A stretch of DNA of 64,000 nucleotides, taken from assembly GCA_964423515.1 (NCBI GenBank), contig CAYRFL010000002.1:14657-78656 (forward strand), in the 5' to 3' direction. The translations under genes were made by a program, and so were the position numbers. Positions 12,717 to 42,100 of this stretch are shown piece by piece; position 1 is the first letter of the stretch, and each line of letters begins with the position of its first letter. The stretch comes from an uncultured archaeon (GTDB lineage: Archaea > Thermoplasmatota > Penumbrarchaeia > JASLWR01). The notes under the pieces are model-generated. The model was not told the DNA's origin and made no database searches. It saw only the letters and a program-made list of their open reading frames with translations.

Positions 12717-12788
12717 AGCCACCGGCGGGGATCGAACCCGCGATCTATGCCTTACCAAGGCATCGCTATACCTCTAAGCCACGGTGGC
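12717..12788 (-). tRNA. tRNA-Thr (GGT)
   Basis: Reverse strand GCCACCG...ATGCC-TTGGTAA-GGCAT...GGTTCGATCC...CGGTGGC-T forms a cloverleaf; no intron, CCA not encoded. Confidence 0.95.
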
Positions 12789-14433: not shown

Positions 14434-14740
14434 TCCGCTCTTGGAGACGCTGGGTCGGAGATGGTTCGGAAAGGCGATATAGATATAGAATCCCCCGTTC
14501 TCTGTGAAGCTACTGCCGTTCGGGCAAGGAAAACAGCTCTGTTACACGTGATTCTTGAAATCCTTGATGCATCAAAGATACACCGAAGCTTCGCGCATAT
14601 GACAATACGCTGTGGGTATTGTTGAGAGGTTACTACGATATAAAATTAATCATGACCATGAGTGAAAATATAAAAACCGATGCGTCATGGAATTGTGGAA
14701 ATATTACCAAACGAAGCAGACCGATGAATAGAAATTGAAA

Positions 14741-14824
14741 TGCGAGGGCTGGGATTCGAACCCAGGAACCACTCAGGACTAGACCCTGAATCTAGCGCCG
14801 TTGACCTGGCTTGGCTACCCTCGC
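14741..14824 (-). tRNA. tRNA-Leu (CAG)
   Basis: Reverse strand GCGAGGG...CTAGA-TTCAGGG-TCTAG, long variable arm, GGTTCGAATCC, CCCTCGC-A. Confidence 0.95.
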
Positions 14825-15105
14825 ACCTGTTTCGATATCGTCCCATCTGTCCCCATTCGTCATCTTTCTGCCAGGTCAACGGGGACCGGCGCGCAACACA
14901 CCTGTTGCGCGCTGAGTTCAGCCCGCAGGGGTGAACGCTATTGACCTGGCTTGGCTACCCTCGCACCTGTTTTGATATCGCCCCGTCTGTCCCCATTCGT
15001 CATCTTTCTGCCAGGTCAACGGGGACCGGTGCGCAACACACCTGTTGCGCGCTGAGTTCAGCCCGCAGGGGTGAACGCTATTGACCTGGCTTGGCTACCC
15101 TCGCA
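14801..15105 (-). repeat. 140-bp tandem repeat (2 units plus 25 nt) containing the 5' 24 nt of tRNA-Leu
   Basis: ttgacctggcttggctaccctcgca recurs at 14801, 14941 and 15081; the two full units differ at 4 of 140 positions. Confidence 0.97.
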
Positions 15106-30315: not shown

Positions 30316-33048
30316 ATGTATAGAAACTCTTCGTTCTGGTTAAACTTTCTGGGATCATTCACCTTTATAACGGTCATCTTGTTGGTCGCTGTATCGTACG
30401 GGGCCAGTGCCACCAGTGCCTCGGCGGACCCGAACCTTACGGGCAACCCAAACGGCGGTGTCGATATGTGGTACATGAGCCCTCAGAGCTACAGGAAGGC
30501 CGGGCTCAACATCGAGAATCCATATCACAATCCGTACATCGTTGTGGGCGTTCAGATGATGTTCAATCTAAGCGAGGCGCCCGGATACAAGGCCAAGGTC
30601 GTGGCGCAGCGAGGCTCGCTGGGAGAGGACCAGGACGCCATGATCGAGCATCAGATAACGGGATTCAGATACGGCAACGAGAAGACCCAGCAGTTCCTAT
30701 TCACGGAGGAAGAATATCTTATCGTGGACACGGATTACAACATACAGATGAGGCCCCTGCGCGCCGATCATCTCACCCTTCAGCATACCGAGGACGACGG
30801 GGCCCACTCGTATTACTGGGACCCCGGCACCGGTGACTGGGCGACCGACGACCCGTCAAAGCCCTCGTCCCCCAACATAGACGGACTGGAGTGGAAGATG
30901 GACGCCCTGGTGGAGCCCGTATCCCCGCTCATCAAGAACATGCCCAAGCCCGAGACCATCGTGGCGCCCGACGCGGTGGATGCCTTCTATGCAGACCTCA
31001 CCCTCGGAAAGACATACGTGTTCTTCCTCGACCATTCTGAGCAGACGAACTTCCAGATGTACGTCTACCGTGATAGGGATGTACTGGGAGTTCCCGGAAA
31101 ACTGACCGAGGATACCCTCGTGGCAAGCACATCCGGTTCCGAGGATGAGAAGCGCCTTACCATCACAGCGTCGTACAATGGAAGGCATTACATCGTGGTC
31201 AGGCCGAAGACGGGGAGCGGAACATATGAACTGGAGTTCCGGGAGAACCGCGCTCCCGAGGCGTATGCCGATGAGGACGTCTATGCGAACCTTCCCCTGG
31301 ATGGCAGCGTCAAGGTCAGCTTCACGAACACCGAATCCTTCGACCCGGACGACGATACCAACGGGAACGACAGGATCGACGAGACCGAGGATAACAATCT
31401 CCTGTATTACTGGGATTTCGACGATAGCGTCGACAGGGACAGGGACGGGGATCCCGCCAACGACAAGGATGCCACCGGCCAGACGGTATTGAGAACATTC
31501 AAGACCGGGGGTACTTTCACCGTTACCCTGACCGTGGAGGACCCGTTCGGAGCCAGCGATTCCGCCGAGTTCACGCTTTACGTCAACTACATACCCGTGG
31601 TCAAGATAACCATCGACGTTGATGGAGAGGCCTTCGTGGACAAGAAGATCACCTTCAACGCCGAGGGCTCATACGACCCGGACGACGATCTGGACGGCAA
31701 CGGTATCATAGACGGCTCCGAGGTGGATCACCTGACCTACAGCTGGGACTTCTATGATAATATAGACAAGAACATGGACGGCAACTTCACCAACGATACC
31801 GATGCCAGCAACAAGATGTGGCTGATGAAGTACCCCAAGGAGGGTGAGTACACCATCACTCTGAACGTCTGGGACAATCCCGAGTCGGCGGACAGGGCAT
31901 ACAACTTCACCCAGGTGGTGGTGGATGTGGTGCCGGAGCCGCCGGAATGGCCCGAGGAAATGATAGATGCAGAGGGGGATATCGTAAGGGACCCAAAGGC
32001 CAAAGAGAACAAGGACCTTACAAACGACGTATTTATCCGCACGAAGAGAGGTGCTGCCAAACCAACAATTGAGGTCAGCGCCTACAGCCAGAACTCCTAC
32101 GATACAGTGAATCTGGTCAGGATATCCACCGAGAACGATGACAACGTCCTAATAATGAAACTCATCACCAAGGGACTGATAATGCAGGAGGCCACGAAAA
32201 CGGAGAGGATATTCTACTCGTTCTACATAGTTGGCAGGGGTTACGCCGAGCCGGCGTTGGATGTCAATGGAAATGCGGAGGACATCACATATTTCTACAA
32301 TCTGACATACTATAACGGCGTCATGACGGCAAGGGACAAAAACGGTGAGGTGGTCGAACTAGATGGACTTACAGGAGAGATAGATGAGGAGGATGGCACT
32401 ACCCTCACTATCACAGTACCGATGCATCAGCTTACCACCCTCATCGAGGAGGTGGATGAAGAGGGCGGGGATGCCGACATCTTCGATATATTAGCGGTGG
32501 CGCTCTATACCTCCAGCAAGACCGAGGCGGCGGAGACCGTGAAGATATATGCCAGGGACTCCATGGGCACCGGGGGACCCGAGGGGACAAAGTCTGCGAC
32601 CTATCCTAAGGATTGGTTCCCGGAGCCGGAGGTACCACCAGACATCATTTCAAACGGAAATGGTGGTGACGATAACATGATGATGATCCTCCTTATCGTC
32701 CTCGGCAGCGTGGTGGTGCTTATCGTGGTCATCTTCGTGATCGTCGCGATCCTCCGGCGAAAGAAGAAAGGAGACGGATACCGCGAGTACACCATAGCAA
32801 AGCCCAGCGCCGCCTCATCCGGCTTCTCGGTGGGCGGTGGAGGAGCTCCCCCCGCGTCCGGGCCCCCGCCATCGGCAGCCCCCCCTTCGGGTGCTCCCGG
32901 ATGGCCGCAACAGGGAGGTTATCCTCCGCAGGGCGGGGGTCAGCCCGCTCTCTGTCCATCCTGCGGCGGCATATGCCAGATGAACCAGATGGGGCAGATG
33001 CAGTGCATGAGATGCGGCAGCATCCTTCCCCAGTACGGCGGTTACTGA
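30316..33048 (+). CDS. Surface protein with PPC/PKD domains, DxDxDG loops, TM, Pro/Gly-rich tail and C-terminal Zn ribbon
   Basis: Signal peptide; YYWDFD/YSWDFY...VTLTVED PKD motifs; TM followed by RRKKK; CPSCGG...CMRCG. Confidence 0.85.
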   Translation: MYRNSSFWLNFLGSFTFITVILLVAVSYGASATSASADPNLTGNPNGGVDMWYMSPQSYRKAGLNIENPYHNPYIVVGVQMMFNLSEAPGYKAKVVAQRGSLGEDQDAMIEHQITGFRYGNEKTQQFLFTEEEYLIVDTDYNIQMRPLRADHLTLQHTEDDGAHSYYWDPGTGDWATDDPSKPSSPNIDGLEWKMDALVEPVSPLIKNMPKPETIVAPDAVDAFYADLTLGKTYVFFLDHSEQTNFQMYVYRDRDVLGVPGKLTEDTLVASTSGSEDEKRLTITASYNGRHYIVVRPKTGSGTYELEFRENRAPEAYADEDVYANLPLDGSVKVSFTNTESFDPDDDTNGNDRIDETEDNNLLYYWDFDDSVDRDRDGDPANDKDATGQTVLRTFKTGGTFTVTLTVEDPFGASDSAEFTLYVNYIPVVKITIDVDGEAFVDKKITFNAEGSYDPDDDLDGNGIIDGSEVDHLTYSWDFYDNIDKNMDGNFTNDTDASNKMWLMKYPKEGEYTITLNVWDNPESADRAYNFTQVVVDVVPEPPEWPEEMIDAEGDIVRDPKAKENKDLTNDVFIRTKRGAAKPTIEVSAYSQNSYDTVNLVRISTENDDNVLIMKLITKGLIMQEATKTERIFYSFYIVGRGYAEPALDVNGNAEDITYFYNLTYYNGVMTARDKNGEVVELDGLTGEIDEEDGTTLTITVPMHQLTTLIEEVDEEGGDADIFDILAVALYTSSKTEAAETVKIYARDSMGTGGPEGTKSATYPKDWFPEPEVPPDIISNGNGGDDNMMMILLIVLGSVVVLIVVIFVIVAILRRKKKGDGYREYTIAKPSAASSGFSVGGGGAPPASGPPPSAAPPSGAPGWPQQGGYPPQGGGQPALCPSCGGICQMNQMGQMQCMRCGSILPQYGGY

Positions 33049-33077
33049 GGGGAAAAAGCAGTTGTTGTGTTTTTTTT

Positions 33078-33300
33078 CGAGGACGAGCGAGCGATAGCAA
33101 ACGCTCGTCCTCGCAGAGTTCTAAAATAATAAAATGATATGGGGTCGGCGTCCGCCGACCACGAGGGGTTGCCATCGTTCTACCTTGTGAAAACTCGTTT
33201 TTTATTGTTGGTGGCGGGCCTGCATGCGCCCTTTACCCCCCGATACCCCACCCTGGCTATCAGGCCCGCTTTACCTGGTCTCAACGGTTATGTCAGATTG
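33078..33300. repeat. Structured intergenic element, copy A (homologous to 38729-39060 in opposite orientation)
   Basis: Stems 33078-33089/33102-33113, 33143-33149/33154-33160 and 33214-33222/33261-33269 align with the reverse complement of copy B. Confidence 0.8.
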
Positions 33301-33308
33301 AGAGTTGC

Positions 33309-34028
33309 TCAGTCTCCCAGCTCGTCGATGGTACGCAGAATTGGCTGAAGGATGGAGTCGAGGCTGGCGGCGATGAGTTCGATGGGCTCCTTTGTGAGCT
33401 GGCTGGCATCCCCGTAGCTGTAGTTGATGAGCATCTCGAAATCGTCCCTGGCTGCGGGGAAATCCCTGTAGAACTGCTCCTGCAGCTCATCGGGTGATTC
33501 GAACTGTTTTCCCAGTACCCGGTAGTACAGCTGCATTCCGAGCTGGCAGTAGAAAGCCAGAGAAGTGAGGAATCCCTCCAGGTCCTCCGGGTCGCCCAGC
33601 GAATGAAGCAGCTGGCTTCGAAGGATCAGAACGTATCTTCTTACCGCCAGTTCCGCCTGTGCTCTGGCGTGCTCGTAGTCCATGTCCGGTAATATCCGAA
33701 GGATGTCGTTTCCACGGACTATCTTGTAGTTCATGGTCACCTCGATAAGCTCGTCCGGTACACTGTCGGACATTCCCTCCAGATCCACGAGCTCCACGAC
33801 CTGAGGTCCTCCGATGCCCTCGTGTTTCCATTTCTGGACAATATCGGCCAAGGCCTGTATAGTATCCGGATCATAGTGGTTGAGAGCTATGAATATGGGT
33901 ACCTTGGTCTTCCCCTCCACGTAATTCCCGACAACGGGGGGGCCGTATACCGCCGTGCATATGTGATTCTTTCCCAAAGCTTCCGCCACTTCATCGGCGA
34001 AGGCTGCAGCTTTGATGATAGGGTCCAT
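33309..34028 (-). CDS. Nucleotidyltransferase-fold protein, probably catalytically degenerate
   Basis: LGKNHICTAVYGPPVVGNYVEGKTKVPIFI resembles the pol-beta-like LYGS..G.Y....SDINLL motif; helical C-terminus. Confidence 0.55.
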   Translation of the reverse strand: MDPIIKAAAFADEVAEALGKNHICTAVYGPPVVGNYVEGKTKVPIFIALNHYDPDTIQALADIVQKWKHEGIGGPQVVELVDLEGMSDSVPDELIEVTMNYKIVRGNDILRILPDMDYEHARAQAELAVRRYVLILRSQLLHSLGDPEDLEGFLTSLAFYCQLGMQLYYRVLGKQFESPDELQEQFYRDFPAARDDFEMLINYSYGDASQLTKEPIELIAASLDSILQPILRTIDELGD

Positions 34029-34244
34029 TTTCTACCACCTATTATCCTCATTATTTAAAAATATAGGCAAGTCTCAATAGCGAATACCCTTAATGGTTAT
34101 AATACTTGCTATTCATCTATCCTTATTATCTCTGTTTTTGCTTTAGCGATGCTCTCGCTTCGCTCCCTCGGTTTCTTGCATCTCTGGAAAATTACGGAAA
34201 ATCGTTATATTTCATTAACCTCATTTCCGATCGCCGTGTGATAT

Positions 34245-36218
34245 ATGTCGGAAAATGAGGAAGTCCCTCCCGTACAGAAGGCTCTCGTTCTAGGAACGAT
34301 AGGTATACTCCTTGCCGGGGCCTTTTTCACGCTGGCATATTACTCCTCCAGGAAACAGATGGCGTCGGATGAGGCTGCAGCCGAGAGGATAAGAAGGGAG
34401 CTTCCGGACAATTTCGTGATGCTCATCGATGAGCCCCGCGACGAATGGGAGCACACATTCGCGGCAACCCTCTCGAGTCTATCCTGCCACAACGGATACA
34501 ATCCCCTCTTCGTCCTGGAGGACGGTGCGCTGGACGGGCATCAGCTGTGGACCCTGCGGAACTCGGCCATGGGCGATTGGCCGGTCCTCCTGTTCTCCAA
34601 CGATTCCTCGGTGATGCACAACGTGTCCCGTCAGGTCGAGAACGTGACCGCATACGATATGGACCCGGACGTGGTCTCGTCCTTTCTGGGATTCGACGGC
34701 CGGATTAGCGTTTCCTCCTACAGGGAGGCACTGTGGGCCTCGTCCGTGTGCTCCAGGGAGAACAAGCTCATGGTCATGGGGGATGCGACCTTCTCCACCC
34801 AGGAGGAATGCTACTGGCGCCTCCTTGGGAGCGGCAGGAATGCGGAATACGTGATATTGACGAACCCGCGGGATTATCGGGACGGCATATACGGCGAATT
34901 CCTGGATCCTTTCAACATCCGGTCGCTATCGCTCATGTCGTCTCAGCTGGCGGCACGTCACGAGGCCTATGTTATCACCGACGTCATCCCATCTGGAGAA
35001 CCGGTAGGCGACCTGTATCCGGAGGATTCCGGGGAAGCCCACTGGAACGACTGGCAGATAGGTGCCCTTGGCAAGATCAAGGAGCTCGATTTCCGTTTCG
35101 GTCCCGTGGAGTATGTCGCACTGGTGGGTTCGGTGGCTGCGGTGCCCCACTTCTTCGTGGCGGACTATTCCGGCGGAGGCAACGTTTCCAGCGACATTAT
35201 CTACGGATTTCTGGACGACGATCCATATTCCATGGACGCAGCCGTGGGCAGGATCATCAATTTCAACGTTCAGGGTGCATCAAATCAGATGGTGCGGACC
35301 CTTGGCTATGACCTGGTGGACGATGAGATAGAGGTGCTGAAGTCGGCCGGAGGTGCGGAAAAGGTCCGATGGCGCCAGCACGGTTCCGTATGGAACGGCT
35401 TCGAGGTGGCGGACCAGCGACTGCAGATGAGTCCCGGCTGGTACATGAAGGACGATCTGGAGGACGAGGGATTCTCCTGGGATTACATGCGGACCACCGG
35501 CAACGAGGGTTACAGGGACGTCATGACGGGAAAGGAGATAGACTTCCAGCCTATCATGGAATCAAGCGGCGTCGTATTCTACAGGGGACATGGCTCTCAT
35601 CACGCCACAATGTACGTCTATGAGCCCGACGAGACATACGACAAGGGCAGGCTGGAAGGCTACGTGGAGGATCCCGACCTCTCATCTTCGGTATATGACG
35701 TCGATTCGGTCCACCATTATCAGCTGCCTCCGCAGATAGGGGCTTTCATCTCCTGCCTGAACGCGAAGGCGCACGGTTACGACAGTGACGGCCCCATCGA
35801 CATGAAGGAGTTCTTCTCTATCAATTACATGTACGGCGGGGCCATCGGACTGTTCGGGGCGACGGAGGTCAGCTATTCCAATCTGGGGCAGGACGTGCTG
35901 CAGTTCCAGGGCCCGGTCACCGGTAACTATCACTGGGACAAGAACAATGCCTGGTACGCCTTTCTCGCAGACGGCCTTCTTGACCACGAGGAGGAGCACG
36001 GAAGCCTTGGAAAGATGCTGCAGTGGGCCGAGAACAGGTACATGAACAATCCGAACAAGGACTATCGCGTCAGCCCCCTGGTGCATGGGGGGGACAGCGT
36101 CGACTGGAGGGAGGTCACCTTCTTCTGTCTTCTTGGAGATCCGGCTTTCCGGATGCCCCAACCCAGGGCCGGCGCCAATGATTTCGATCCCTGGCATAAC
36201 GGCGAGGAAGACAAGTGA
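34245..36218 (+). CDS. C25 (gingipain-like) cysteine peptidase, N-terminally anchored
   Basis: YVALVG, SDIIYG, AVGRI, YRGHGS (His), FISCLN (Cys), GGAIGLFGAT, LLGDPA. Confidence 0.8.
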   Translation: MSENEEVPPVQKALVLGTIGILLAGAFFTLAYYSSRKQMASDEAAAERIRRELPDNFVMLIDEPRDEWEHTFAATLSSLSCHNGYNPLFVLEDGALDGHQLWTLRNSAMGDWPVLLFSNDSSVMHNVSRQVENVTAYDMDPDVVSSFLGFDGRISVSSYREALWASSVCSRENKLMVMGDATFSTQEECYWRLLGSGRNAEYVILTNPRDYRDGIYGEFLDPFNIRSLSLMSSQLAARHEAYVITDVIPSGEPVGDLYPEDSGEAHWNDWQIGALGKIKELDFRFGPVEYVALVGSVAAVPHFFVADYSGGGNVSSDIIYGFLDDDPYSMDAAVGRIINFNVQGASNQMVRTLGYDLVDDEIEVLKSAGGAEKVRWRQHGSVWNGFEVADQRLQMSPGWYMKDDLEDEGFSWDYMRTTGNEGYRDVMTGKEIDFQPIMESSGVVFYRGHGSHHATMYVYEPDETYDKGRLEGYVEDPDLSSSVYDVDSVHHYQLPPQIGAFISCLNAKAHGYDSDGPIDMKEFFSINYMYGGAIGLFGATEVSYSNLGQDVLQFQGPVTGNYHWDKNNAWYAFLADGLLDHEEEHGSLGKMLQWAENRYMNNPNKDYRVSPLVHGGDSVDWREVTFFCLLGDPAFRMPQPRAGANDFDPWHNGEEDK

Positions 36219-36239
36219 TCCTCTTAAAACTGAATAACG

Positions 36240-36893
36240 TCAGGCGAAACCGATCTTCGGAAAGGGTTGGTATATCGCAGTACATATGTTCGACAGGTGG
36301 GCGTTGATGCGCCTGAGGAAATTGGCCAGGAGAGCAAATATTATAGCCTCCTGTCGGGTCACTTCCTTGTCCATGTCGATCTCCTGTAAAATCCGCAGAT
36401 GAAGTCTCTTCACCTTCTCATGGATCCTCACACCTTCCTTTGCTTCCTCCTCGTTCTCCAGGGAAAAGGCTTTTCTCGTTATGCCGAATAGAGTGATGAG
36501 CATTTCATACATCTCCTCAATCAGCTTGGTATAATTGGCGTTCGTGAGCCTTCCCTGCACAACCGATGGGAGCTGGGCGATGTTCTTCGAGTAGTCCCCT
36601 ATCCTTTCGTAGTCGATAACGATACTTGTCAGGGACAACACCGTGGAAAGGTTCGGATCGGATGACGAGGCAGTATAGTTGAAGAGATGCCTTCTGATCT
36701 CAATGATCTCCCTGTTGATGTCCTTGTCCTTTCTGATGACCGATACATCGCAGGAGATGCTGCTATCCATGACACATTGGAAGGAGCTTTCGAACATTTG
36801 TCGCGTGGAACCGTGTATCTCTTCTACCCGGGTGTAGGTTTTTTCCAGAAGGGACGTTCCCGACAATGCACTGAACAGGTTTGCGAATTTCAT
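36240..36893 (-). CDS. PhoU-domain protein
   Basis: DKDINR...DYERIGDYSKNIA, LRRINAHLSNI; lies downstream of an Na/Pi symporter. Confidence 0.85.
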   Translation of the reverse strand: MKFANLFSALSGTSLLEKTYTRVEEIHGSTRQMFESSFQCVMDSSISCDVSVIRKDKDINREIIEIRRHLFNYTASSSDPNLSTVLSLTSIVIDYERIGDYSKNIAQLPSVVQGRLTNANYTKLIEEMYEMLITLFGITRKAFSLENEEEAKEGVRIHEKVKRLHLRILQEIDMDKEVTRQEAIIFALLANFLRRINAHLSNICTAIYQPFPKIGFA

Positions 36894-36960
36894 CTCTTCA
36901 CCCCCGATGATATGATCAATGGTCTTTCTCCTTTATCAATCGTTTCCAATATAAATGAGC

Positions 36961-38100
36961 TCAGCCCGTAAATCGTGATATCACCACTGCTATGATCGGT
37001 ATCAAGAAGAAGAAAACCAATATGATCAATATTGAAAGGTATCTCCGCTCCATCACGATATCTCCGAGCCTCTTTGCCAGGGATATGGGTATCTTTCGCA
37101 GGGGATAGAACACTACCACTGCGCTGACGTTGAAGATCAGATGAGCAAAGGCCAGAGCCACCGCCTCGGTGGATCCCGTAACCATCGACGAGAGTATGGC
37201 TGTAATGGTGGTCCCGATATTCGCCCCCAGCGTGAATGGAAATAACTGTTCGATCGTGATCATCCCGCTGCCAACGAACGGGATAGCCATGGACGTCGTT
37301 ACTGAGCTGGATTGGATCGTGGCCGTGAAAACCAGACCAAAGATGAAACTTATTATTGCGGTTCGAAAGAAATATCTGTCGATGACCATCTGAACCTTTG
37401 TTTCCATCATGCTTTTGATGATCGAGGTCATCACCTTGAGCGCCACGAACATCAGGAGCAATGATATGATGGCCCAGATCCAGCTGGCATCGGTAATGGA
37501 GAAGGCCCGTTTGATGATGGGTTCAGTGATCACCTTGATCGGACTCAAGAATGTCATGCCTTCCGCGCTGGTACATCTATCGGCCATGAGGAGGGAAATC
37601 TTTTCAAGGTATCCTTTCCCAAACACGCTGCGGGTAATGATCTCCAGGGGGAGAAAAAGAGATGCGGCCATGATATTGAAAAGATCATGCACGGTGGCAC
37701 CGGAGAATGCCCTGCGGAATTCTCTTCTCCTTGACATATGCGCAAGGGAAACGAGAGTGGCGGTAACGGATGTACCAATGTTTGCACCGATTATTATGGG
37801 GATCGCCAGATGCAAGGGCAGTTTCCCGCTTCCCACGGCAATCACGGCAATGGACGTTGTCGACGAGGAGCTCTGGACGATGGAGGTGGCAAGTATGCCG
37901 ATAAAAAGACCGGCGATCGGATTGGACACGAGTTGTATCAATTGTTCCGATGTGCCGGACCCCATGTTCTTGAAAGCACTACCCATCATGCTGATGGCCA
38001 GGAAGAAGAGGTACAATGCTGCGAGGAGCGTAAGTATTTTCTTGATCCTTGAAAGAGGTCGATTTGGGTCTTCGTCCGGTTTCCGTCGAAGCCCCTTCAT
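36961..38100 (-). CDS. Na+/phosphate cotransporter (NptA family)
   Basis: Two QSSS motifs and two GANIGT motifs, GATVHDLFN; start 38100 or 38166. Confidence 0.92.
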   Translation of the reverse strand: MKGLRRKPDEDPNRPLSRIKKILTLLAALYLFFLAISMMGSAFKNMGSGTSEQLIQLVSNPIAGLFIGILATSIVQSSSSTTSIAVIAVGSGKLPLHLAIPIIIGANIGTSVTATLVSLAHMSRRREFRRAFSGATVHDLFNIMAASLFLPLEIITRSVFGKGYLEKISLLMADRCTSAEGMTFLSPIKVITEPIIKRAFSITDASWIWAIISLLLMFVALKVMTSIIKSMMETKVQMVIDRYFFRTAIISFIFGLVFTATIQSSSVTTSMAIPFVGSGMITIEQLFPFTLGANIGTTITAILSSMVTGSTEAVALAFAHLIFNVSAVVVFYPLRKIPISLAKRLGDIVMERRYLSILIILVFFFLIPIIAVVISRFTG

Positions 38101-38308
38101 CCGGTCGTTTATACCGCTGTACAGTACGATCAGGATCCCGGGAATATGTTTGAAATTTCGGGTCATTTCAGATACATGTTATGATGTACTGGCTTATATA
38201 CTTGCTCGAAGTACAATATAGACCCCTATTTTCCAGCATAATAAATATATAGATATATGAAAAATATGGATCGGACCGAATATAAATCCATGGGAAAGGA
38301 CGTGAAGT

Positions 38309-38662
38309 TCAGCCGTCGTAACACTTGTTACATCCTTTTCTGTGTATGAGAGAAGCATCCGCGGCCCCGCATTTCGGGCATACCCATGCACCTCCCGTGG
38401 ATCTCGTCTCCTCCTTCAGTTCACTCTCGTCGAACAGAATGGCGGGGGACACTATCTCCTCCACCGGTGGGAATAGATCCGAGTAGGAAGGACGGCGTTT
38501 AGGTGGAGTGTAGGTGGGATATCTCTTCACGGCGGACAGCGCCTCGGGGGGGAAGCGACGGAATCGGTTCTTTCGGAGATTGTTGATGAGAAGACCGACT
38601 ACCAGACCGAAAACGAACACGGCTATAATGAGCAGGATCTCCAGCACATCCAGGTTATCCAT
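38309..38662 (-). CDS. Small single-TM protein with C-terminal Zn ribbon
   Basis: N-terminal hydrophobic helix followed by a basic patch; WVCPKCG...CNKC. Confidence 0.7.
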   Translation of the reverse strand: MDNLDVLEILLIIAVFVFGLVVGLLINNLRKNRFRRFPPEALSAVKRYPTYTPPKRRPSYSDLFPPVEEIVSPAILFDESELKEETRSTGGAWVCPKCGAADASLIHRKGCNKCYDG

Positions 38663-38728
38663 GAGGATAAATCCAACAATAACCAGATATTTATATATTT
38701 CTCCCCGTATAGAATTCCTTCAATTATA

Positions 38729-39060
38729 AACTGATGTTTTGCGTTTTGGACATTTTGGAACGATGAGATGACCCATCAAATCCGATACAACCATTCGATA
38801 AACCATAGCGCGGGCTCGATAGCGGGGGAGGGGAAAAGGGGTGGTGTACGCGCACGCGAGCCCGCAACAGAAAAATGGAATGCACGACAATATGTGGGGG
38901 CCGGTTTCCCGGCCCCATGGGTCGGCTTGCCGACCCTTTGTTTTCATCTTCATTTTATAGGACTCTAGCGAGGGCGAGCGTTGACTGTCGTTCGCTCGCC
39001 CTCTACTCCCTTCTATATCATGGGTTGTATCGAATCGCTCGAAAACGCAAAACTTCAGTT
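38729..39060. mobile_element. MITE-like non-coding element, copy B, with 19-bp terminal inverted repeats
   Basis: AACTGATGTTTTGCGTTTT (38729-38747) vs AAAACGCAAAACTTCAGTT (39042-39060), 18/19 match; inner IR CGATACAACC/GGTTGTATCG; ATA on both flanks. Mobility is inferred. Confidence 0.6.
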
Positions 39061-39137
39061 ATATATATTACAACGAAAAGAAAAGAGGGATACCGGCCCC
39101 CCGATAAGGACCGGTATCGTTACCCGGCGACGCTCCC

Positions 39138-42100
39138 TCAATACCTGTTCTTGAAGTGATATATCGCATAGGCTATCGCGGAGCCCGCAAGCCCCACGAG
39201 GATGAACGCCAGCATCGCCCATGATCCGGATTCGCCACTGAGGGAGATGAACGATTCATCGCTCTCCACGTTCAGGTTCTTCTCCATGTACTTGTAGTTG
39301 TTGGTCTCATCGGTTTCCGCTATCACGTTCTCGGGATCCACCGCAACCTTGACCTTGTGATTCCCTTCGCTCACAGGCCATACGAAGGTGACGAGCTTCT
39401 TGTCTCCGACGACGATCCTCGGAAGCCTCCTTGTGTCAACCTCCCTCTCGTCCACGAACAGGGTGATGCTGACGTCCTCGGCCAGGAGTTCGCCCTTGTT
39501 TCCCACCGTGGCGGTGAAGGAGGCGATCTTTCCCACCGTCATTGACGTGGCGGAGATCTCGCCGAGAATGAGCAGGTCCGGCATGATTATCTCTATACTG
39601 AAGGTGAGCACATTGTCCGAAAGCTCCTTCTCCCCCTCGCTTTGGGCGAGGATGGAGAAGGTCACGTTCTCGCCGCTGTCCACATCCGGAACCTCGACGT
39701 TCACGGCGATATAGATGCAATGGCCAACGTCCAGCATGATGGCGAGTTCCTCGAAATCGTCCTCCCGGGGTATGTAAAGTGTGTCCCTGTCGAAATCCCT
39801 GGTATCGATCACACCTGTGAAATTGGCTGCTTTCATGGTGGAGAGGCTGTCCATCTTGTGGTTGAGCGAAAGGTACGGGAAGTACAGTTTCCAGTCCTCG
39901 TCGAGAAGGTCGCGCGATATGTTCAGGAAGCCCGTATCTATGGCATTCCCGAGGTTCTCCAGCTTGAATATGAAGTCCACCGTGCTTCTCGGAGATGCGT
40001 ACTTGCCCGCCTTTATGGTGGTCAACCGCATATCCGATATCTTCTCCACCCATATGTGGACGTAGAGTGTCTCACCATAGTTGAGCAGTTTCTCCCTGCC
40101 GGAGATATTTATGCCTATCTTGTAGGGATCCATCTCGGGCGTTTTCGGGTTTGCGTCAGCCATGGCGTTCTCCGGTACCATGACCTTCAGGTCCACCGAC
40201 ACCTCCTCGAAGGGGTTGAGATAATTGGATGTGGATGAGAACTCGAAGGACCATCCGAGGGGCAGGTCGTAGATTGCCAGGTCGGCGATGTCGTCCCCGT
40301 TACCCTCGTTCTTCACGGATATTGTGTAGTTGACATCCTTTCCGGGATAGCATTTGTGGGACTCGGGCGCCGCCTGGGCCGATATCTTTGCCACCAGATT
40401 TGCAATGGCCGTTACCGATATGGGCTGGGCTTCGTATTCCATTCCGAAATTGTCATATCCGGTCGCGCCGACCTCCACCACCTTCCGCGTTCCCGCGATG
40501 GCGTAGGTGGGGGCACCTATCTGGAACACCACCTTTATCCTCTCCCTGCTCTTTATGGCGAAGTTCTTCGTTGGGAATCCGGCGGACCAGTTATTTGCGA
40601 AGATCTGAAGGGAATCTATTAGCGTCCCGGTCCCGAAGAACGAGAAGGTCACATCCAGTGTTGAGTCGAAGTTGTTGATTATGAAAACCTCGAACTTCAC
40701 GGTGCTGCCCGGGTTCACGTGCTCGTTGTCCTCGGGGCAGGTCATGACCAGGGCAGGCAGACCGGTGACGGTGAGGGATAGCTGATCTATCCTCTTCAGC
40801 GTCCCGAGACCCAGCATGCCGAACATGGTGGATGTGGCGAGAATGGTGATGTCTACGACCTCTCCCTTGGACGCGGTTATAGGCGATTCGATCGTCACGT
40901 TGATGACAGCCGTGTCGGGTTTCAATCCCTCCTTGCCGAGCGACAGGTTCCAGCTCTCGCCTCCGTTGTCGAACAGGACCTTCCAGTTGGAGGGTGATAC
41001 AAGGCCCACGTCGTAGCTGTCGTTGACGTTTCCCTTGTTATGCAGCATTGCCTGGAACACCTTTCTCTCCCCCGGAGCGATGCTGCCTATCTTGTGGCCC
41101 GTGAACTCGTCCTTCTCCGCCAGGAACTCCAGGCCGAAGTCCACGTCGATATCCAGTATGGAAATTGTAGCGATCTTGGCCTGCGTAACGCCGTACTCGT
41201 TCTCGAGCTTGGCCTTGACGTTCACAACGCAGGGTTCGCTCATCTTTCCCAGAACGGGGGCGGTCACCGTCAGGGTCACGTTGTCCATCTCCATGAGACC
41301 CAGCTCCACCCACCAGAGCATACTGCCGTCGGGTCTCTGGATCCCGTCATCCGGCGTATTGGGCGTATCCAGCTCCGCCTTCCATCCCGGCAGCGGCTCA
41401 CTGATGGTAAGCTCCACCTTGTCCTTGCCCTCGGAGGGACGCGCCAGGGGATTCTCCACGAAGCCAAGCTCCGAGCCCACGGTTACATTGAAGGTCACCG
41501 AGTGTTCGGGCTCCACGAGCTTGACCATGGGCTCGTCCTCTCCCGTCTTGGGATCCTTCTTAGGATTGAGCGACACCTCGTTCGGTTTGCTAATGCCGAG
41601 GTTGAGCGTGTTGATGGCCATGGCAGTACCCCAGCACGTGCCGTAGCTCCCGCTCCAGCTCCCGTCATCCCTCTGGGAGTCCAGAAGACCGGTCTGAACC
41701 CCCTCGTTCCAGTCCCTCCATTCCTCTCCCCCGTGAAGGTACATCGCTATGGTCGCGTGATAGGTGTAATAATGTCTCGATATCTGGTATGTCGGCCCCC
41801 AGTTCAGGAGGGAATTCGTCCCACCGCGGGTGGATGCCTTGTCGGGTTTGCCCAGGAGATACATACAGTAGGTTCCCACCGCAGTGTTGGTATTGGACGT
41901 GTATGCCCCGCTGTACCCGAATCCGCTTCCGCTGGAACAGTGATCGAGCCATTTCTCGGCATACTCGAAAGCGTAATCGGGAACGTCGTAGATGCCCGAG
42001 GATTCCGCAAGGACGATGGCGTGAATGTTCCATCCGGAAAGGGAGGTGTCCGATGAGGTCGTGTGTGGTTCGTACCTCCATCCTCCCTGGCTCCTGGGTC

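Follow-up and report, generated by a model that had tools for sequence, protein, structure and literature searches.

The question raised by this locus is what kind of element occurs twice in a 64,000-nucleotide stretch of DNA from an uncultured marine Thermoplasmatota archaeon (the whole stretch is called the window below), once at 33078-33299 on the forward strand (copy A) and once on the reverse strand, where the matching part spans 39003-38779 (copy B). The two segments align with a mean column identity of 75%. An earlier note on this DNA had described them as copies of a structured non-coding element, either an undescribed non-coding RNA or 3′ untranslated region (UTR) motif, or a mobile unit. 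Both belong to a new repeat family, common to two genera, in which a shell of the MITE (miniature inverted-repeat transposable element) type encloses hairpin modules like those of repetitive extragenic palindromes (REPs) and SPRITE elements, and its local hairpins are actively kept paired. We think it probable, with some reserve, that this is an old MITE-like family whose REP/SPRITE-like modules possibly act as bidirectional terminator-like elements, a putative function.

The family is large in the host’s own genome, a 4.4 Mb assembly of 222 contigs (G000). BLAST against this assembly gave 49 matches, and nhmmer gave 88 with copy A as query and 130 with copy B. An iterated profile collected 96, 192 and 209 matches over three rounds and 251 in its final form (E ≤ 1e-3), corresponding to 189 non-overlapping loci. 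Further homologs, for which the earlier note had proposed a covariance-model search, were also recovered by a model of the core of the element (R1; 145 positions, 21 base pairs, 52 copies as input), for which 150 first-look candidates were scored in each of four genomes. R1 has at least 141 matches in the host’s own genome, at least 17 in G001 and at least 25 in G003; the latter two represent a sister genus, and G003 is 88% complete. None of the 150 candidates scored in G002, a third genus of the same family, matched R1, nor were there matches in five genomes of four other families, and nothing was found in G014, which belongs to another family of the same class. By DNA similarity, 3 of 41 genomes match: the host’s own, G001 and G014, the last through a single weak hit to the end motif.

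In the complete element, as seen in copy B, the parts follow one another in the order terminal repeat, inner half-repeat, stem 1, CTAGAG, A-rich linker, stem 2, stem 2b, T-rich linker, stem 3, right inner half-repeat and right terminal repeat. The four hairpins are unlike one another in sequence and fixed in order, and do not form an inverted doublet of one REP. Profile coverage is highest over the stem 2-to-stem 3 core (~150-190 hits), followed by stem 1 (~100-140) and the ends (~30-60). Stem 3 encloses a C-rich interior (38 nt in copies A and B) with a covarying inner 3-bp helix and near-invariant TGCGC and GCTA.C; it is usually preceded by GTAG, GTGG, GTTG, GTAA or GTAT, a variable motif, part of which can pair with the 3′ flank. 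Among the variant copies, the GAGGGC-type hairpin can be found to either side of stem 2, stem 3 may have a short loop, and some copies harbor further mini-repeats within stems 1 or 3. Indels of any length separate the copies, and no common open reading frame (ORF) was seen, consistent with a non-coding element. Copies in the sister genus retain stems 2 and 3, together with a stem 2b hairpin and the T-rich linker; in most of them the loop of stem 3 is short.

That base pairing has outlasted sequence, as the earlier note had claimed from two copies, is borne out by compensatory changes on 52-76 copies. In an alignment of 52 copies, scored over stems 2 and 3 plus the 3-bp inner helix, standard pairs make up 89.7% of 1062 cells; shifting the partner by 1-3 columns leaves 25.6-45.9%. 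Changes on both sides of a pair account for 120 cells versus 49.9±7.2 in shuffles, a count reached by 0 of 500 shuffles; as the shuffle control keeps the kinship among copies, these numbers are read as coordinated change and not as a probability. Double changes are seen in 14 of the 21 pairs. Individual pairs of stem 3 split between alternatives (UA 25 / CG 23; CG 33 / UA 12; GC 21 / AU 16), as does one pair of the inner helix (CG 25 / GC 19). Stem 1, aligned in 76 copies, has 719 of 852 cells paired (84.4%; 34-58% with slid partners), with splits such as GC 44 / CG 15 / TA 3 at one pair and TA 32 / AT 6 / GC 6 / CG 5 at another; G-U-compatible states are frequent there (GT 36 / GC 30 at one pair). 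Stem 2b is the most sequence-variable of the hairpins, with 29 distinct 5′ arms in which pairing is kept; a perfect hairpin of at least 6 bp is present in 43 of 56 copies and in ~10 of 56 in shuffles.

An internal control was provided by 27 copies that span all features. The inner inverted repeat, whose arms lie ~240 nt apart, is only 68.3% paired at a mean column identity of 0.70, with many one-sided changes (e.g., CG 11 / CA 10 at one pair). The corresponding values for the local hairpins are 85.6% and 0.81 for stem 1, 94.3% and 0.91 for stem 2, and 92.9% and 0.83 for stem 3. The long-range repeats thus decay like independent sites, uncompensated, whereas the local hairpins keep their pairing. 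This contrast speaks against a single large RNA held shut by its ends and for a process that acts on short-range hairpins, which could be selection on single-strand folding or a mutational mechanism of local reach, for example template switching.

The ends of the element point to its mode of spread. The terminal repeats of copy B match at 18 of 20 positions, and 85.2% of cells are paired in the 10 copies that could be aligned over both ends. Both end motifs are present in 13-15 copies of the host’s own genome. The 11-nt core of the end motif (≤1 mismatch) is found 43 times on one strand of this genome and 28 times on the other, against ~24 expected per strand, and seven pairs of end motifs lie 301-493 bp apart. 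A search of 37 genomes of the class with an 18-nt end motif (≤2 mismatches) gave 17 hits in the host’s own genome, 22 in G014 and one each in G003 and G010; the reversed pattern, used as a control, matched 0-1 times per genome. When public genomes were scanned with a pattern for an autonomous element, at least 119 stretches were returned; among the matches listed nearly all are from unrelated bacteria, which we judge to be chance level for a pattern of 16 specified bases.

In G014 (loci L141, L146, L148 and L275-L286), ends nearly matching those of the present family over 18-19 nt bound a different small element of 156-527 bp, the interior of which consists of tandem ~12-nt repeats and contains none of stems 1-3. 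Both ends are present at 13 of the 15 loci, and exact AT-rich direct repeats of 6-8 nt flank 10 of these 13, as scored by eye with no shuffle control. When the frame of these duplications was fixed from G014 and carried over to the host’s own genome, 3 of 13 two-ended copies, including copy B, matched at 5 of 6 positions, compared with 1 of 156 mismatched-partner pairings. The shared ends, the duplications in G014 and the fixed-frame result together indicate, as far as sequence comparison can tell, that these ends belong to a cut-and-paste transposon family that occurs in the class, and that different interiors appear to have been mobilized between them. The terminal inverted repeats and target duplications are likewise consistent with the mobile-unit origin considered in the earlier note.

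Many ends of the G014 element are identical to one another, which suggests recent activity in that genome.

Copies are not placed at random with respect to genes. For this analysis, genes were taken as ORFs of ≥110 amino acids (aa) with the elements masked, and 142 of 160 loci scoring ≥40 were classifiable. Convergent spacers hold 49 copies, divergent spacers 23 and tandem spacers 70, against expected values of 26.3, 26.2 and 89.6, respectively (chi-square p ~5e-6), and the result is alike when spacers are weighted by length. Within tandem spacers, copies lie closer to the upstream stop (median 47.5 nt) than to the next start (119.5 nt), in both orientations relative to the genes (29 sense, 41 antisense; p = 0.19). 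As a rule, then, copies follow closely on the 3′ ends of genes and may point either way. The 25 nt before stem 2 are 36% A and 21% T, with a run of at least four A in 29 of 56 copies, and the stretch after stem 2b is 45% T and 22% A, with a run of at least four T in 40 of 56 copies. The center is strand-symmetric in the manner of bidirectional terminators, and a GC-rich hairpin followed by a T-run and placed after genes is the arrangement by which SPRITE-like elements are recognized.

Copies A and B illustrate these features, copy B being near the family consensus and copy A a diverged member. In copy A, all of whose features lie on the forward strand, stem 1 pairs 33078-33089 with 33102-33113 (12-bp arms, 12-nt loop), and the A-rich linker (33114-33142) starts with a CAGAG motif directly after it. 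Stem 2 (33143-33149 with 33154-33160; GGTCGGC/GCCGACC) is the hairpin best conserved in sequence; it is followed by a weakened, GU-rich stem 2b predicted at 33161-33188 and by the T-rich linker (33189-33213). Stem 3 pairs 33214-33222 with 33261-33269, its 9-bp arms enclosing exactly 38 C-rich nucleotides. The tail region (33270-33299) ends in GGTTATGTCAGATT (33286-33299), the right half of the family’s inner inverted repeat. Copy A has neither the left inner half-repeat nor the two terminal repeats, and is a core only.

Copy B, read on the reverse strand throughout, is a complete element of 332 bp (38729-39060), a size below the ~600 bp taken as the upper bound for a MITE. Its left terminal inverted repeat (39041-39060) is complementary at 18 of 20 positions to the right one (38729-38749), and the flanking 6-mers, TATATA and TTTATA, are identical at 5 of 6 positions. 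The inner inverted repeat has its left half at 39021-39035 and its right half at 38779-38793, the latter being the tail first described at 38792-38779. Between them lie stem 1 (39003-38993 with 38980-38970; 12-nt loop), stem 2 (38919-38936; again GGTCGGC/GCCGACC), stem 2b (38897-38916), which is a perfect hairpin of the form GGGGCCGG gaaa CCGGCCCC, and stem 3 (38865-38857 with 38818-38810; 9-bp arms and a 38-nt C-rich interior). Compared with copy A, compensatory differences affect one pair in stem 1 and two pairs in stem 3. Copy A folds at -82.3 kcal/mol (z -3.34; 0 of 200 shuffles equally good) and the full copy B at -137.1 kcal/mol (z -8.66; 0 of 100).

The stems, loops, 38-nt spacing, tails and compensatory differences that the earlier note had listed were all verified in the sequence; it had overlooked stem 2b, the terminal repeats of copy B, the identity of the tail as an inner half-repeat and the ~190 loci elsewhere in the genome. 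Its statement that both copies lie just 3′ of large surface-protein genes, in the same orientation, is true: the upstream neighbor of copy A on the same strand encodes a 910-aa protein with PKD domains, and that of copy B a 1191-aa surface-type protein with CARDB. Copy A fills nearly all of a 260-bp spacer between two convergent genes, and copy B has a gene for a Na/Pi cotransporter nearby. The idea of a 3′-UTR motif proper to surface-protein genes does not generalize, given that the family occupies convergent, tandem and divergent spacers and both orientations. The absence of a recognized family was upheld: Rfam lists nothing at gathering score at either copy in a scan of the window and nothing even at E ≤ 1 in 32900-39200.

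A tRNA or tRNA fragment at stem 3 was considered and rejected, as ARAGORN calls none there. Elsewhere in the window, ARAGORN reports an 86-nt tRNA-Leu(CAG) at 14740-14825 on the reverse strand, and Rfam at gathering score lists only a tRNA at 12717-12788. In contigs from four public DNA runs, summed depth over 38675-38941 is 27-39, compared with ~4-8 elsewhere in the window, and many loose ends occur there; this jump is due to contigs of other family copies stacking on stem 3 of copy B.

Two of the mini-repeats found nested in the family are repeats in their own right. The first, ~60-68 nt long, consists of CCCATTTCATTCCG, a covarying hairpin, CTGNGCCC, a second hairpin and CTACGGG. A regular expression finds 36 matches in the host’s own genome (e.g., G000:C18:~11886 in L039, G000:C36:~3374 in L104, and L150-L155). 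At least 11 main-family copies carry it within stem 1 or stem 3, and it is also part of three further repeat contexts; Rfam has no match to it at E ≤ 1. The other, ~65 nt long and containing CACGGAACACCTTCCGGGCAAC, has 15 hits at ≤3 mismatches in the same genome (including G000:C18:~12125 and G000:C137), and two copies of the main family have it as an insertion in their stem 3, within the 3′ arm.

Comparison with the sister genus bears on whether copies are retained in place. Five of the 20 sister-genus copies examined adjoin genes whose orthologs in the host’s own genome bear a copy on the matching side. Copy A’s own spacer has orthologous flanking genes in both G003 and G001, and the element is absent from it in both, the spacers being too diverged for a clean empty site.

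In G003 the orthologous spacer (L128, 2221-2361) is 141 bp long and holds a short hairpin, TTTTAGGCC...GGCCTAAAG, between T-rich and A-rich runs, which looks like a minimal version of the family’s arrangement.

Among described elements, the closest likenesses are bacterial. Correia elements of Neisseria, enterobacterial ERIC sequences, and the BOX, RUP and SPRITE elements of Streptococcus pneumoniae share with the present family a small size, the lack of coding sequence, a multi-copy state, terminal inverted repeats and target duplications, the last being putative here; they are likewise mostly intergenic and strongly folded, with the modularity and nesting known from BOX, RUP and SPRITE, the last named after its terminator-like hairpin (as described in the pertinent part of PMC10969869). 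The same part of that source names MITEs in the archaea Sulfolobus, Halobacterium, Haloquadratum and Desulfurococcus and in ‘several other’ archaeal genomes. Our full-text literature search found no report of MITEs for Thermoplasmat* archaea. Unlike the bacterial MITEs, the present family has an uncultured Thermoplasmatota archaeon as its host and no similarity to any Rfam family, and most of its copies are without terminal repeats; it is old (median identity 81%) yet its local hairpins are paired.

A second set of likenesses is with REPs, the bacterial interspersed mosaic elements (BIMEs) built from them, and REPINs with their REP-associated tyrosine transposases (RAYTs). These too are GC-rich extragenic palindromes that occur mostly downstream of genes, form mosaic clusters of hairpins, persist for long periods and are inherited vertically (PMC3733652; 10.1101/2021.07.10.451892, in the portions of both that concern these traits). 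Some bacterial REP families have alternative complementary residues in their stems and lie mainly downstream of genes (same portion of PMC3733652). In contrast to REPIN-RAYT systems, the present family has four kinds of hairpin and transposon-type terminal repeats, and no REP-associated tyrosine transposase was found in the genome. According to the relevant part of the preprint, REPINs were undetected in archaea (10.1101/2021.07.10.451892); generic REP-like palindromes are listed for a few archaeal genomes in a 2025 paper, in the available parts of which none is from Thermoplasmatota (PMC12306157).

We would explain the family as follows. The ~19-bp terminal inverted repeats would be recognized by a cut-and-paste transposase circulating in this archaeal class, and the cargo between them would be the four GC-rich local hairpins (1, 2, 2b and 3), parted by A-rich and T-rich linkers. 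Most copies, including copy A, would be cores that lost their ends or never had them. Local pairing may have been kept since a single-stranded form matters, be it RNA, or DNA during transposition or replication. An A-tract, two hairpins and a T-tract read alike on both strands, and would most likely serve as a bidirectional terminator or an element that protects 3′ ends, a role to which position, symmetry and analogy point; the action of bacterial REP/BIME, Correia and SPRITE elements is thought to be similar. Such an action would make copies tolerated, or even useful, after genes.

Several observations weigh against this explanation. The family is old: the median identity between nearest neighbors is 81% and the maximum 95% (151 of 189 copies with a match of ≥100 nt), and no two copies are near-identical. 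Assemblies tend to lose near-identical repeats or to break at them; with 18-20 copies located at the ends of contigs, the young ones may be under-represented. The left end is reached by ~50-60 of the 251 profile hits, about a quarter, and the right end by ~30-45. No autonomous element with these ends was found, as the fragmented assembly of the host’s own genome has no two end motifs spaced 0.5-6 kb from each other. In this genome, a test for target duplications in which the offsets could vary freely gave no significant result (mean 3.69 versus 3.29). No contig from the four public DNA runs (two studies) skips copy A or B, and A is bridged unchanged, which gives no sign of recent mobility. The five syntenic pairs are not mutual best matches, one ranking 56th of 81 and the other four giving no hit. 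Consequently, ancestry in place, repeated insertion at favored spots and conversion are indistinguishable here, and we do not claim retention in place. Blind RNAalifold on the same MAFFT alignment recovers only four pairs, all in stem 2, a shortfall caused by misalignment of the variable parts. The position statistics rest on crude gene calls (ORFs of ≥110 aa). Finally, archaeal termination is generally ascribed to oligo-T tracts, with hairpins not required, which makes the terminator role one of analogy.

A related possibility places the weight on the host. Here the repeats would have been spread by a transposon and would since be kept by the host through RNA folding, either as strand-symmetric modules of 3′ ends or termination or as a multi-copy structured RNA whose C-rich loop meets G-rich targets. 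We regard this as possible, if on the unlikely side.

Rather doubtful, in our view, is a reading in which the repeats are structured regulatory RNA genes or 3′-UTR modules outright. The C-rich interior of stem 3 (CACCACCCC...CCCCNCCCC) would be single-stranded and would bind G-rich targets by pairing, ribosome-binding sites for example, much like the C-rich loops of some bacterial small RNAs, and the repeat family would be a multi-copy family of RNA genes. Stem covariation alongside a near-invariant stem 3 interior (TGCGC, GCTA.C and runs of C) is typical of functional RNAs, copies A and B fold strongly, and the family persists in two genera. However, this same C-rich interior is missing from most sister-genus copies, and copies show no orientation bias relative to neighboring genes, as the tandem counts above attest. 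Some 190 copies are implausibly many for paralogous RNA genes; their module content differs from copy to copy, with mini-repeats nested even in the stems; Rfam has no match; and inspection of the linkers by eye revealed no conserved promoter element.

Carrying about the same doubt is the proposal that the palindromes owe their upkeep to a mutational mechanism (template switching or quasi-palindrome correction, or gene conversion between copies) in decaying selfish DNA with no host role. The internal control bears directly on it: compensation is confined to hairpins whose arms are ≤56 nt apart and does not extend to the inner repeat (~240 nt), as template switching predicts. An old family with no recent copies also agrees with it, and syntenic copies that are not mutual best matches are compatible with conversion. 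Folding of one RNA strand is nevertheless a better fit to the 29 well-paired arms of stem 2b and to the G-U states in stem 1. Stem 3 has a loop whose sequence is conserved yet not palindromic, and whatever the mechanism, the bias toward gene 3′ ends calls for selection or targeting.

An archaeal counterpart of the REP/REPIN-RAYT system, in which folded single-stranded DNA hairpins are copied by a domesticated, single-copy HUH tyrosine transposase, seems very improbable. The repeats do resemble REPs as GC-rich extragenic palindromes of high copy number that persist and are vertically shared between genera; GTAG, GTGG, GTTG or GTAA usually precedes stem 3, REPs being marked by a constant GTAG or CGTC tag on one side of their short palindrome; alternative complementary stem residues recall the bacterial REP sub-families (in the part of PMC3733652 that describes them); and the host’s own genome has exactly one Y1 transposase gene. 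This gene (L043 1465-1956; G000:C1:9148-9639), the only candidate for the HUH transposase gene flanked by copies that the earlier note had thought worth looking for, encodes a protein of 163 aa that scores 99.5 bits with the IS200 model (cut-off 55) and 24.2 bits with the REP-associated model (cut-off 80). It sits between AT-rich hairpins unrelated to the family, with no family copy near, and is thus of the ordinary IS200 type. The six Y1 matches in G001 (one full copy with 81% identity, four partial matches and a distant one at 32%) resemble an ordinary insertion sequence, and the protein was not found in G003 (88% complete) despite the at least 25 repeats there. The IS200-type score, the lack of adjoining copies and the failure to find the gene in G003 leave the REP-RAYT reading without support; moreover, terminal inverted repeats and target duplications are not products of HUH transposition.

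A TnpB partner was also sought, and the Cas12f1-like/TnpB domain PF07282 gave nothing over the cut-off in the host’s own genome.

Sites like the attC sites of integrons, that is, structure-conserved and sequence-variable palindromes after gene cassettes, would also be structure-conserved hairpins located after genes, but are all but excluded as an explanation, as attC sites are single bulged hairpins and the present elements are 220-330 bp long with four hairpins and AT-rich linkers, the copies are scattered over many contigs in mixed orientation beside conserved chromosomal genes with no cassette arrays (no search was made for an integrase gene), and the genes on either side of copy A have orthologs in the sister genus.

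An old MITE-like family with REP/SPRITE-like hairpin modules is thus the reading we prefer, and it has several consequences for this lineage. Its repeats account for some of the contig breaks and depth spikes in assemblies of the lineage. The terminal repeats shared with G014 point to a so far unnamed transposase family active across the archaeal class. Structured intergenic repeats are well documented in bacteria and barely in archaea, and none was found for Thermoplasmatota in the literature searched. With more than 150 natural variants of four hairpins, the family is a data set on the role of hairpins at archaeal transcript 3′ ends. If the host does maintain the modules, they would be an archaeal parallel, of independent origin, to the REP/BIME elements of bacteria, one that works without a RAYT.

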